From a virus: DNA of 64,000 bases. The translations under genes and the position numbers were made by a program. Below the pieces are notes generated by a model, which was given only the letters and a program-made list of their open reading frames with translations, ran no database searches and was not told the DNA's origin. Where the stretch lies: positions 35,511 to 99,510 of IMG/VR virus record IMGVR_UViG_3300050120_000213; one strand, 5' to 3'. Below, in pieces: positions 1 to 6,972 of this stretch. Position 1 is the first letter of the stretch. Each line of letters starts with the position of its first letter.

Positions 1-444
1 GTGATACGCCTGTAACAGCATCGGGCCTGCTTCCGCGCCAAAGTCCATAATCTTGGTGCGATAATTCTGCAAGGTAATCCGATTAATTGTCCCCCGCAAG
101 ATATTAACAGCCGGTTCCCAGGCATTTTGATCGGCCTTTAGTACCTTGGTGGATTCAACATTCGCGTAGTTGATCTGGCTGTAAAAATATGCGTTCTCCA
201 AAATCTGCACATAGTAGCTAGCAGGTTCCGGGGTGGGTGCATCCATAACTTCAGGAAACATCTGGGAAAGCGTCTCAATCTGAGGCAAATTATGGTGCTT
301 TCGGACATGCTCATCCACCCACTGAAACACTGGGAGTTCGTTAGGTTTGAATAGTGCTGGTGTTAGCTTTGCTCTAAACCATTCTATTGATTGCTGTTGT
401 TCGCATAGGCGACGGATCGCCTTAAGGCCGCTGTTATACGACAT
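1..444 (-). CDS. probable replicative helicase (DnaB-like), N-terminal part; runs off the window
   Basis: Not in the ORF track. ATG at 444 opens a frame that is open to base 1 (MSYNSGLKAIRRLCEQQQSIEWFRAK...). It follows the initiator and DnaC-like genes; the catalytic domain is not visible. Confidence 0.5.
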   Translation of the reverse strand, partial: MSYNSGLKAIRRLCEQQQSIEWFRAKLTPALFKPNELPVFQWVDEHVRKHHNLPQIETLSQMFPEVMDAPTPEPASYYVQILENAYFYSQINYANVESTKVLKADQNAWEPAVNILRGTINRITLQNYRTKIMDFGAEAGPMLLQAYH

Positions 445-464
445 GTTCTTATTGCCCCGGTTTT

Positions 465-1016
465 TCAGGCTATGGTCTGAAAATGTTCTTTTATGTGTTC
501 CGCAAACACTGGCCCATATGCAAGCTTCAGCCCCTCCAGGGACTCCACACACACCACCGTGGGCTTGTTAGCGGTTAACCGATTTAATAAAACGTCATAT
601 ACCGACTGCACTTGCCATGCGGTCAGTTGTTTACCAAAGCTATTCAGATACAAGTTAGGTACCACTAATACGGTCGGCTCCATGGCTTCGACAGGGTGAC
701 TGACTATGGTATTCAACGAGATCACCCGGGCATCAATAAAATTGCGAACCAATGTCCCGGCAATCGCCATGCACCGGGTTTCTGCGTGATCAGCCCCGAC
801 GAGCGCCAGCCCGCCCAAGCCGTCTTTACGGCTGACATTAAAACTACGGACCCACTCAATTTCGCCGTCTTGGCAAAAACTTTTCATAGAATGACGGATG
901 AACGAAGCGGGGACATTGGCGATCTCGCAGACGCGTTCCATATCTGCAATGATTCGCCCATGCACCACTGGGTCTAACACCACCACCGGTGCGGTCGCTT
1001 TCACGGTCGCATTCAC
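465..1016 (-). CDS. DnaC/IstB-like helicase loader with degenerate ATPase motifs
   Basis: PTVLVVPNL...VYDVLLNRLTANKPTVV resembles the DnaC Walker B/sensor region. It lies between the initiator and the helicase. No GKT is present. Confidence 0.55.
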   Translation of the reverse strand: MNATVKATAPVVVLDPVVHGRIIADMERVCEIANVPASFIRHSMKSFCQDGEIEWVRSFNVSRKDGLGGLALVGADHAETRCMAIAGTLVRNFIDARVISLNTIVSHPVEAMEPTVLVVPNLYLNSFGKQLTAWQVQSVYDVLLNRLTANKPTVVCVESLEGLKLAYGPVFAEHIKEHFQTIA

Positions 1017-1019
1017 GAT

Positions 1020-2117
1020 TTATCCTTTTGACTTCACTAAAGCCATCATCTGCTCAAGGGCCGTCTGTTGTTGGGCTTCAGAAGCCAGATCAGGCGGGTG
1101 GGCAACAAGCTCCTTAATAGGATTATTAGAAGCTTGTGGCACTGTACCTGATTTAATCGGTTTCAGCGAGGTAGGTATGTTCGGTGGCGCACCATGTTTC
1201 TCTTTCTGCTCTGCAATCAATTGCAAAAGGATAGGGTAGTGGTTCCTGAAAAATTTCAAGGTGGGTTGGGTAGGGGGCTCCGCTACAGACTTTCTAATCT
1301 TGCACTCCCAGATAAACGTGCCCCAATCAGACAGGGCAAACAGCATACACTCTCGCGTTTTTTCTTCACCAATGTCCGCTTGAATATCTTTCAGCCAGCG
1401 CTGCTCTAATCTACTCATGGAGAGCTGCCTTACCCCAGTGAGTGCAGACATCTCATTCAACCAAGTAAATTGTAGAGGCTTACCCTGTTTTTTCTTCTCT
1501 GTAAGTCGCTTTAACACTTCTACGAGGTTTGTCATAGCTACATCAGAGGGTGTTGCCTCTGCCTCATTTTCATTCTGCCCTGAAAGCATTACCAGGGGTG
1601 GGGGGGTTTGTATTTCTGTGGCTGGTTTTTCAGCCACCAAAGAATCTTCTTTTAAATCTTTTCTTTTAATTAGGCATGTGGTCGTTATGCCCGAATCCAT
1701 CTGGGCGTTATGCCCGGTTGCAGCCGTACCAAGGGCGGCCATGAGTTCTTCTTTGATATCCTTTTCAATGATGCGTTCGATCACTGCTAGTACATCTATC
1801 CGAAGATGGGTCACCGGCTTACCCCGACTATTTTGATAAATAGCTTTGTGCAATAGCCCTTCGTCAGCGAGGCGTTTCATCGCGGTGCGAAGACTGCGCT
1901 CGGAGAGTCCGGTTTCCTCACACCACTCTTGGCGTGAACGCCCTACCCATTGTTGCCCATCGCGTTCAATCCATGCCCGCGTCTTACCGGCTTTAGATTG
2001 GGTGCCGTAATAGAGCAGTTGGGAAGCCAGCCGCCCTCCTTGCAGCCCAAACAGGGTATTGAGTTCGGAAAGAACGTAGCCGCCCCGGCGCTTACTTATT
2101 TCTGTCCAAGGGGTCAT
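1020..2117 (-). CDS. replication initiator protein (winged HTH)
   Basis: WVGRSRQEWCEETGLSERSLRTAMKRLADEGLL HTH typical of phage/plasmid Rep; upstream of the loader and helicase. Confidence 0.65.
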   Translation of the reverse strand: MTPWTEISKRRGGYVLSELNTLFGLQGGRLASQLLYYGTQSKAGKTRAWIERDGQQWVGRSRQEWCEETGLSERSLRTAMKRLADEGLLHKAIYQNSRGKPVTHLRIDVLAVIERIIEKDIKEELMAALGTAATGHNAQMDSGITTTCLIKRKDLKEDSLVAEKPATEIQTPPPLVMLSGQNENEAEATPSDVAMTNLVEVLKRLTEKKKQGKPLQFTWLNEMSALTGVRQLSMSRLEQRWLKDIQADIGEEKTRECMLFALSDWGTFIWECKIRKSVAEPPTQPTLKFFRNHYPILLQLIAEQKEKHGAPPNIPTSLKPIKSGTVPQASNNPIKELVAHPPDLASEAQQQTALEQMMALVKSKG

Positions 2118-2737
2118 TCTGCTTCCTCGTCAGCCATCTCGGCGTAGAGTTCTTCTATCAGGGTATTTTTTGGCACCTCTCCAAATTCGAACCTAGCTTC
2201 GGTCGCATCTTTGATAGCTGCGCTTATCCACTCTTTATCAAATTCCGTAAGCCCACCATCTAGTAAAGCCATAGCGTCCCCCATAATATGGGCTACTAAT
2301 TCCTCAAACATTGACCCATTCTTGCCCTCAACTGCCCCAAATTCTGGGTGCACCATATAAACGGTATGCTTGCCGGGAGTGCCACATAGAAAGTAAGCGT
2401 GTGGGAATTTGCCTAGTGCTGCGATGGCTTGTAATTTTTTTATTTCTTCATCGGATGGGGGGGCAGGCTTTATTTCTACAAATAAAAAATCCCAACACCC
2501 TAAAGGAATCTGTGCCTTGTACACCCAACCAACACTCCAAGTCTCTGTGTACTCCGGTGGATACCTATTTGATATTTTAAAGTCAGGCAGATAGCAACTA
2601 CTATCAGATAGTTTGTATCCTTCGTCTTCGTACACCCATTTGATGTCGCCTAGCGACTCAAAAAACACAGCCCAACGGGCTTCGAGCCGTGAGCGGAAAC
2701 GGTAACCTTTATATTTAGTTTCTATGGCTGTGACCAC
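2114..2737 (-). CDS. PD-(D/E)XK nuclease-family phage protein
   Basis: FRSRLEARWAVFF...YLPDF...FVEIK. Start reassigned to GTG at 2737 behind an AGGAG RBS. Confidence 0.7.
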   Translation of the reverse strand: MVTAIETKYKGYRFRSRLEARWAVFFESLGDIKWVYEDEGYKLSDSSCYLPDFKISNRYPPEYTETWSVGWVYKAQIPLGCWDFLFVEIKPAPPSDEEIKKLQAIAALGKFPHAYFLCGTPGKHTVYMVHPEFGAVEGKNGSMFEELVAHIMGDAMALLDGGLTEFDKEWISAAIKDATEARFEFGEVPKNTLIEELYAEMADEEAE

Positions 2738-2753
2738 AACAAGACTCCTAACG

Positions 2754-2867
2754 AAAAAAGTCCCACCTGCTCGCTCCCTCTCATTGTTTAGAGAGGGTTG
2801 GCCGACACGGACCAAAGAACCGTGCAGCGAGCATGTGGGACTTCCTTTGGGTTTTCCTAACGGCCAA
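2754..2867 (-). ncRNA. structured leader RNA (attenuator- or C4/CI-like) upstream of the replication operon
   Basis: Stems 2758-2766/2835-2843 and 2768-2775/2826-2833; hairpins 2776-2797 and 2806-2824; alternative pairings 2798-2804/2861-2867 and 2812-2817/2845-2850; followed by a U-tract. Confidence 0.6.
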
Positions 2868-2889
2868 GCTAGGCTGTACTGAGGTTTCC

Positions 2890-2917
2890 AGTATAGCACA
2901 CCCGTTAAGGAATGCAA
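2890..2917 (-). promoter_or_regulatory. sigma70 promoter
   Basis: TTGCAT-16-TATACT with TG extension. Confidence 0.7.
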
Positions 2918-2926
2918 TAGGGTTGT

Positions 2927-3454
2927 TTAGGCTGCAACAGCCCCGGCAGTGAAGTTCGGCAGTGCTACAGGCGGCGTAAACGGCAGTTGCGGGCGCTTGC
3001 CGCCCCGAGTCGGGTGTAGCGCACTGGCGACCTTAGCGCGCAGCGCACGCGGCATTTCGAAGGCGGACTGTACACCTTCAGCGGGGCATACCGTGACGTT
3101 GCGGGTTTGCTCCAGCGCGGCCAGCAATTTTTCCACGCCCTTACGGGAGGTGTAATAGCGCTGGTACCCCGCCGATTCCTTGTGGCGCGAAAGGAAGTCC
3201 CTGGCGTCGTACTTGTCTTCCAGACCGGCCTTGGTAAAACCCCAGTCTTCGAACTTGCCGTACATCTTGACCTTGTAACTATCCTGGCCGAACTTGCCGA
3301 TCACGATGGCTTGGTAGTCATCAGCGCTGGTTTTCGTGGCCGCGATCAGGTAGAACAATTCGTGTGATAGCCCGTCGATAAATACCGGGTGAGTTGACAG
3401 CCCCGCCGCCCATGCGCCCTGTTTTTCGAACAAGGGCTTTTTTGCTTTTGCCAT
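2927..3454 (-). CDS. hypothetical protein
   Basis: 175-aa ORF with RBS, on the coding strand. Confidence 0.7.
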   Translation of the reverse strand: MAKAKKPLFEKQGAWAAGLSTHPVFIDGLSHELFYLIAATKTSADDYQAIVIGKFGQDSYKVKMYGKFEDWGFTKAGLEDKYDARDFLSRHKESAGYQRYYTSRKGVEKLLAALEQTRNVTVCPAEGVQSAFEMPRALRAKVASALHPTRGGKRPQLPFTPPVALPNFTAGAVAA

Positions 3455-4337: not shown

Positions 4338-4365
4338 AGAATAGCACTTATTGCTAGTTTGTCAA
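4338..4365 (-). promoter_or_regulatory. sigma70 promoter
   Basis: TTGACA-16-TATTCT, TG extension. Confidence 0.75.
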
Positions 4366-4426: not shown

Positions 4427-4930
4427 TTATTTTAACCACCCCCAGTTCTTTTTTAGGTGTATGCCAAGTACAGTACTACGTGTCACACCGTATATTTCTG
4501 CAATTTTTGACTGTGGCATTTTTGTAAGTAGTAGCTTACGGATTTCTACCACATCTTTAGGAGAAAGTTTTGCCATACCATGCCTAGCGCCCCTACGTAT
4601 TCTGCCATTTCTAATGGCGTCATCTAAGTTATCTTTCCTGCCACCATACCGTAAATTACCAGGGGTGTTATTAGTGGGGGTGTCATCCCAATGCAGAACC
4701 ATTCTGCCATTCCTAGGGCCAATAAAAGCCTCCGCCACCAAAACCGAAACAAGCTTATGCCTACGCTTATTATGTTTGTACAAACTTACTTGTGGGCGTC
4801 CCCCATCTTTTATACTCGTGGCTATTATTCCTCCTGGGGTACAGGGGCGTGGAAGTGAACGAACTCGACCCTGGTTAGACACCTCATATAGCCCTTCATA
4901 ACCCTCTATAGGCAACCAATTTTCAATCAT
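4427..4930 (-). CDS. NUMOD4-HNH homing endonuclease
   Basis: ENWLPIEGYEGLYEVSNQGRVRS (NUMOD4), VLHWDDTPTNNTPGNL (HNH), C-terminal HTH; AT-rich. Confidence 0.9.
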   Translation of the reverse strand: MIENWLPIEGYEGLYEVSNQGRVRSLPRPCTPGGIIATSIKDGGRPQVSLYKHNKRRHKLVSVLVAEAFIGPRNGRMVLHWDDTPTNNTPGNLRYGGRKDNLDDAIRNGRIRRGARHGMAKLSPKDVVEIRKLLLTKMPQSKIAEIYGVTRSTVLGIHLKKNWGWLK

Positions 4931-6811: not shown

Positions 6812-6938
6812 CCCTTCATGGAGGGGCGCAGACTAAAGCTGTCAACTCGTGATGGAGCACGAGGATCGCTCTATACCGTTGCGGCGAGCGCCGCAGGGTG
6901 TCTACGCCCTTTCACGAAGGGGCTGGGATTGCCCCAAC
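6812..6938 (-). ncRNA. putative structured small RNA
   Basis: Own promoter; stems 6812-6820/6913-6921 and 6824-6833/6900-6909; hairpins 6846-6863, 6880-6895 and 6922-6938. Confidence 0.6.
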
Positions 6939-6944
6939 AAATTC

Positions 6945-6972
6945 AGTATATCGCATTTGCGGCAATTGTCAA
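6945..6972 (-). promoter_or_regulatory. sigma70 promoter
   Basis: TTGACA-16-TATACT. Confidence 0.8.

Follow-up and report, generated by a model that had tools for sequence, protein, structure and literature searches.

What is the role of the strongly folded RNA element that lies directly in front of the replication genes of a phage from a lineage known only by metagenomes? The window, the whole stretch of 64,000 nt of DNA analysed here, corresponds to positions 35511-99510 of a 99.5-kb IMG/VR virus record, which is rated 100% complete by CheckV. Nearly all genes of the phage are located on the minus strand, and so is the leader element, which is flanked by a 175-aa ORF on the one side and by the first gene of the replication module on the other; it is assigned to this strand because of its U-tract, the promoter and the orientation of the genes. 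At a length of ~150 nt the element is easily testable.

The replication module and its branched leader hairpin

The 175-aa ORF upstream of the element (2927-3454, minus strand, stop codon TAA at 2929-2927), to which no function is assigned, is the final gene of a unit under a consensus promoter at ~4365. On the downstream side, the ribosome site AGGAG (2749-2745, minus strand) is followed after a spacing of 7 nt by the GTG start codon (2737-2735) of the first replication-module gene, and the database copy of the 207-aa product begins at the same GTG. This protein (2114-2737, minus strand) is a putative PD-(D/E)XK-type endonuclease: its sole family match is phrog_21138, a family of unknown function, one of its homologues has been named RecB-superfamily nuclease by JGI, and a weak Atlas lead points to T7 endonuclease I/DUF1064. 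The start of the subsequent gene for the 365-aa replication initiator (1020-2117, minus strand), a winged-helix, DnaD/O-like protein with PHROG matches, overlaps the stop of the nuclease gene (ATGA), and further downstream are located a 183-aa ORF without a family match (465-1016, minus strand) and the 5' part of the gene for a DnaB-type helicase (1-552, minus strand), which continues past the edge of the window. The first-pass annotation had labelled these genes a nuclease-initiator-loader-helicase operon; the initiator and the DnaB-type helicase are borne out, the nuclease is plausible in the light of the weak leads above, and the loader is a purely positional assignment.

Between the two gene units, positions 2843-2754 of the minus strand are predicted to fold into a three-way-junction hairpin of -47.3 kcal/mol that ends in U6 and has the features of an intrinsic terminator or attenuator. 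The outer stem (2843-2826/2775-2758) comprises 18 nt with one A/G mismatch. It encloses a first inner hairpin, GCACGG (2825-2820) paired with CCGUGU (2810-2805) around the 9-nt loop UUCUUUGGU, the junction CGGCCAA (2804-2798), and a second inner hairpin, CCCUCUC (2797-2791) paired with GAGAGGG (2782-2776) around an 8-nt loop. The GC-rich stem, terminating in GGUGGGAC, runs directly into UUUUUU at 2759-2754, as in an intrinsic terminator, and only the four nucleotides CGUU separate the U-tract from AGGAG. Folding thus confirms the structured leader that had been described from the sequence, with an interrupted outer stem, a U-tract before the ribosome site and two inner hairpins. Its stability exceeds chance (z = -5.0, with none of 200 shuffles as stable), the plus strand reaches an equally good value (z = -5.8), and among all hairpins with a trailing U-tract in the whole 99.5-kb genome this one is the most stable. 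On the other hand, the hairpin is not compact, as its arms are separated by 50 nt that contain two hairpins, a branched insert that is atypical of intrinsic terminators; a standard terminator scan with loops of 3-8 nt missed it.

A promoter motif and competing pairings in the 5' flank

Upstream of the hairpin, a candidate promoter is recognized by its motifs at 2890-2917 (minus strand), with TTGCAT at 2917-2912, a 16-nt spacer and the extended -10 sequence TGCTATACT at 2898-2890. The nonamer TGCTATANT occurs in 15 copies genome-wide, every one on the minus (coding) strand, and 14 of the 15 copies are intergenic with TTGACA positioned 16 nt upstream, while the fifteenth, at 2898-2890, has TTGCAT instead. 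We therefore read 2890-2917 as a probably genuine, but weaker, extended -10 promoter, and judging by the promoter motif only, transcription would start near 2884. The arrangement of an upstream promoter motif and a terminator-like stem in front of the operon's first gene is that of an attenuator. The promoter family has no further member from the U-tract to the end of the helicase gene, and the nearest promoter upstream of the leader promoter is the one at ~4365, from which no U-tract terminator separates it.

The same layout, TTTGACAAA followed after 16 nt by (G)TGCTATANT, is found in many intergenic regions and delineates a sigma-70-type promoter family of ~22 members, all of them on the minus strand (in the window, for example, at 4365, 6706, 6972, 39683, 42956, 44096, 47408, 55243, 56007 and 62829). 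The copies at genome positions 13742 and 87453 are identical over ~40 nt. Not a single member is located in the block of virion genes (genome ~43-75 kb), and this absence suggests that the late genes are transcribed by a different mode, while the early and middle units would be transcribed by the host polymerase.

The 5' flank between the promoter and the hairpin (2845-2867, minus strand) contains two segments with complementarity to the core of the structure. UUGGCCG (2867-2861) is the exact complement of the junction CGGCCAA, and CCAAAG (2850-2845) is the exact complement of CUUUGG (2817-2812) in the loop of the first inner hairpin, precisely as had been noticed at first reading. Together with the pairing of CCAAAGGA and UUCUUUGG, the UUGGCCG/CGGCCAA duplex can form an alternative, antiterminator-like helix, which encloses the 5' arm of the outer stem, so that the two folds should be mutually exclusive. 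For every nascent length from 2812 to ~2766, pairing of the flank with the core is the predicted minimum-energy fold, and the prediction flips to the three-way junction only once the 3' arm is complete.

How unusual this complementarity is depends on the measure. Only 74 of 20000 dinucleotide shuffles provide exact matches to the unpaired segments that are as good (p ~0.004), while by three energy measures between 140 and 243 of 1000 shuffles of the 45-nt flank reach the observed value (p ~0.2), two of the measures giving 207 and 140. The direct-path barrier for refolding from the nascent to the terminator fold is predicted to amount to 23.9 kcal/mol, compared with a median of 6.6 kcal/mol in shuffled flanks, 6 of 300 of which reach 23.9 (p ~0.02). 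A crude home-made heuristic of co-transcriptional folding arrives at the one fold or the other according to where the barrier threshold is set. In these models the alternative fold does exist on paper and is a little out of the ordinary, which falls short of a proof of design. With respect to a sensor, the riboswitch and T-box models of Rfam were unmatched in the leader, and the sole leader-peptide candidate is a putative 17-codon ORF.

The flank harbours further short repeats and complementarities. The octamer CGUUAGGA at 2862-2855 duplicates an octamer that overlaps the ribosome site (2753-2746), and the flank segment CCUAGC is able to pair with either copy. A near-complement, UUCCUUAACGG (2912-2902), is located in the promoter spacer and pairs with CCGUUAGGAA (2862-2853). 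The octamer CGTTAGGA is not enriched, with 3 occurrences in 64 kb versus 1.3 expected.

The junction in related phages

No homologue of the leader RNA was found by blastn against the INPHARED phages or by nhmmer against 20 loci encoding relatives of the nuclease. The single-sequence covariance model R1 retrieved only the element itself when it was run on the genome of the phage, on four related records and on 65 loci, and no match was obtained with exact patterns in IMG/VR and in metagenome contigs. Protein searches did not retrieve any relative of the nuclease above 42% identity, nor any relative of the initiator at E <= 1e-10. The leader RNA, the nuclease and the initiator are consequently singletons across all collections searched. 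A leader that travels together with the nuclease gene was considered as well and is unsupported, as the regions upstream of the 20 nuclease homologues do not share a leader.

Syntenic relatives became accessible with a recurrent palindrome, TTGCAATTGATTGCAA, as the search key in combination with alignment of the helicase. In IMGVR_UViG_3300046512_000087 (G001) the helicase is 50% identical and the homologue of the 175-aa protein has 136 aa, while in IMGVR_UViG_3300046463_000247 (G004) the helicase is 51% identical and the homologue has 158 aa. Both have kept the gene order AAA ATPase, 175-aa homologue, initiator, loader and helicase, and both carry a plain GC-rich hairpin with a U-tract directly past the 175-aa homologue and ahead of the initiator-side gene. 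These terminators are non-homologous in sequence and lack a branched body, and no recognisable promoter is present between the 175-aa homologue and the initiator-side gene in either genome. A third relative (L144) has a different organisation and no such element. As judged from these comparisons, conservation is limited to where an intrinsic terminator sits, in front of the initiator gene, and does not extend to the branched body, the promoter or the flank pairings.

The nuclease-like gene (2114-2737) is missing at the junction in both syntenic relatives (L141 and L151 compared), which identifies it as an indel; G001 carries a 69-aa ORF where the gene would sit. Two genes upstream of the nuclease-like gene, at 4427-4930, an HNH/NUMOD4 homing-endonuclease gene is located, and from this proximity and the indel of the nuclease-like gene mobile nuclease genes seem to gather in this region.

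The palindrome TTGCAATTGATTGCAA itself recurs genome-wide and in several other IMG/VR phages of ~100 kb. Intergenic copies in the window are found, for example, at 1212, 4390, 11985, 29790, 38225, 47365 and 61060, and in G004 one copy is located directly past the terminator at the junction.

Attenuation and competing explanations

We tentatively favour, with somewhat less than even confidence, the reading of the element as a leaky or kinetically bypassed transcription attenuator that gates the replication operon of the phage. What the sequence shows is the fold, the gene order, a promoter motif and terminators at the corresponding junction of the relatives; we infer where transcription starts, that it stops or reads through at the U-tract, and that the flank acts as an antiterminator. 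A weak promoter, devoid of a -35 consensus but equipped with the extended -10 sequence, would start an RNA near 2884, which ~40 nt later would fold into the very stable three-way-junction hairpin running into U6. The terminator would halt most polymerases, those arriving from the upstream unit as well as those from the local promoter, and the terminated local transcripts would be released as a leader RNA of ~130 nt, while a fraction of the polymerases would pass the stop into the replication operon. As the four downstream genes have no other recognisable promoter, they should be expressed only by polymerases that cross 2754-2759, and as these genes need read-through, the stop must be leaky or bypassed. 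A kinetic leak is likely in this model: 50 nt separate the halves of the stem, and the flank would pair first, before the 3' half exists, with UUGGCCG and CCAAAGGA engaging CGGCCAA and UUCUUUGG in an alternative fold that competes with the terminator.

If the attenuator reading holds, the dose or timing of initiator, loader and helicase would be set by a terminator in front of their operon, a design that would be common to the two syntenic relatives and that would here be elaborated with an own promoter and a possible bypass.

The closest documented analogue is the greA leader of E. coli with its constitutive termination, where two-thirds of the transcripts stop at a leader terminator, a simple 11-bp stem, and form the GraL RNAs (PMC2836576). 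As in greA, an intrinsic terminator is encountered within ~130 nt of a promoter, still before the first gene, and the predicted products are short terminated RNAs next to read-through mRNA. In contrast to the 11-bp stem of GraL, the stem of the phage element is 18 bp long and encloses two hairpins, and termination is a prediction here. The element is thus of an ordinary kind in an unusually elaborate form, in a phage without close relatives, and does not constitute a new class, as attenuators, terminators in leaders and small RNAs that derive from leaders are all familiar, and nothing points to a new sensing mechanism.

In phage lambda, the terminator tR1 is located before cII-O-P, and the PR'-tR' arrangement yields the 6S RNA until Q acts. 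The phage element parallels tR1 in that a terminator precedes replication genes, and PR'-tR' in that it directly follows a promoter, an arrangement that makes read-through or antitermination necessary; in contrast to lambda, the N/Q-type antiterminator families PF06530 and PF03589 were not detected and there is no sign of a temperate phage. With classical attenuators and riboswitch platforms the element shares a predicted alternative helix that would form earlier, exclude the terminator and be separated from it by a high barrier of interconversion. It differs from classical attenuators in that the alternative helix encloses the terminator strand instead of using it, and from attenuators and riboswitches alike in that neither a ligand aptamer nor a tRNA or protein site was identified and nothing is conserved.

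The best-surviving alternative is a plain terminator or insulator that ends the upstream unit, with complementarities that arose by chance and replication genes that live on a basal leak, thus no switch at all. The relatives carry just such ordinary terminators at the same junction, the shuffles of flank-pairing energy are not significant, and the flank and the branched body are conserved nowhere in the searches. A plain terminator, however, sits less well with an extended -10 sequence of the family type upstream, and not downstream, of the stop; the refolding barrier (p ~0.02) and the exact matches to unpaired segments (p ~0.004) are unusual, and a branched stem of -47 kcal/mol is much more elaborate than the other terminators of the phage. 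We consider this explanation rather unlikely, if to be taken seriously.

A stand-alone small RNA gene, the ~130-nt product of which acts in trans, is improbable, and so is its version as an immunity RNA of the C4/CI type. The succession of promoter, structured RNA and terminator is the anatomy of a small RNA gene, and the two exposed segments have exact upstream complements in the manner of a1/b1 of P1. As far as the work of Citron and Schuster (1992) is cited in PMC8546580, P1 C4 and P4 CI are characterized by exposed segments of a structured RNA, and to that extent the phage element, with two short exposed segments that are exactly complementary to a target copy further 5' in the same transcript, resembles them. 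From this layout the first-pass annotation had drawn the analogy with C4 and CI and proposed a switch that controls replication or the lifestyle decision. No C4 match was obtained in 2600-3050 with E values up to 10 in the covariance-model check against Rfam that had been suggested; with the whole window searched at the gathering score and 2600-3050 searched at E up to 10, Rfam yielded only two tRNAs and one chance snoRNA match, and ARAGORN did not predict a tRNA-like gene at the leader.

Furthermore, the coding strand of the 99.5-kb genome contains the pair UUGGCCG...CCAAAG a single time, hence there is no second, downstream target of the a2/b2 type, and the best duplex of the exposed segments with translation-initiation regions of the phage, -16.9 kcal/mol, is weaker than the shuffled mean of -19.5 kcal/mol. 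The CheckV-complete genome does not encode a Phage_integrase or Resolvase domain, that is a tyrosine or serine recombinase, and on this basis a temperate or immunity context is not indicated. Unlike the immunity RNAs, the phage structure also ends in a terminator before replication genes. Neither the analogy nor a C4/CI-like lifestyle switch is supported. Of the proposed RNA switch, a structured regulatory leader with alternative pairing in front of replication genes is still a reasonable reading, while control of the lifestyle is unsupported.

Alternatively, the structure might be a site for RNase III processing or an mRNA-stabilising structure of the 5' untranslated region, comparable to the early RNase III sites of T7, with an incidental U-tract. 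If an A/G-rich run pairs with the U-tract, the lower helix is extended to ~21 bp with one mismatch, and two further promoters precede large structures without a U-tract (window 6815-6945; genome 1047-1221). The leader hairpin, in contrast to these other structures, ends exactly in U6, and canonical terminators occupy the junction in the relatives, so that we give this explanation little credence.

More far-reaching, and a long shot, is the notion that the terminator discriminates between promoters by folding that depends on the 5' end of the transcript, which would constitute a protein-free RNA device of three parts. Transcripts from the internal promoter would form the flank helix, become kinetically trapped and read through; transcripts from the upstream unit would additionally carry UUCCUUAACGG, which would pair with CCGUUAGGAA, disable the antiterminator and cause termination. 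If true, the replication operon would be insulated from early transcription, while its own weak promoter would pass.

Very improbable is a leader-peptide attenuator in the manner of pyrBI. The putative 17-codon leader ORF MLAARFFGPCRPTLSKQ (2781-2834, minus strand, stop codon UGA at 2783-2781), as read from the sequence, has AAGGA 8 nt ahead of its AUG, covers the 5' arm and stops 5 nt short of the 3' arm; a ribosome on this ORF would melt the 5' arm and cover the 3' arm, and termination would be suppressed when translation closely trails the polymerase. The AAGGA falls within CCAAAGGA and would be sequestered by the alternative fold. An open frame of 17 codons after an AUG is, though, expected by chance in ~4 of 10 cases, conservation and a codon signal are lacking, and the AUG is buried in a strong stem. 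A DNA-level element, such as an origin, a cruciform or a protein-binding inverted repeat, is hardly credible despite its position next to the initiator gene and the equal folding of both strands, as there are no iterons, no AT-rich unwinding region and no enrichment of the octamer repeat, and only one strand carries the arrangement of U-tract, promoter and ribosome site.

Besides the putative attenuator, several other structures were observed in the genome. A second promoter-driven three-way-junction RNA with a long outer stem and two inner hairpins (window 6815-6945, minus strand, z = -5.7) has the architecture of the leader element with an unrelated sequence, is not matched by model R1, lacks a U-tract and precedes a hydrophobic ORF of 26 codons. 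Outside the window, at genome 1047-1221, a consensus promoter precedes an imperfect leader hairpin of ~35 bp (-0.43 kcal/mol per nt), which is a candidate RNase III-type site, and long intergenic arrays of short repeats of the GGY-NN type are present at genome 9969-10112 and 11629-11892. Within the nuclease ORF, ~50 nt past its start, a terminator-like hairpin at 2666-2691 (minus strand), followed by UUUUUU, overlaps the conserved RSRLEARWAVFFE motif and may be a coincidence or a second point of attenuation.
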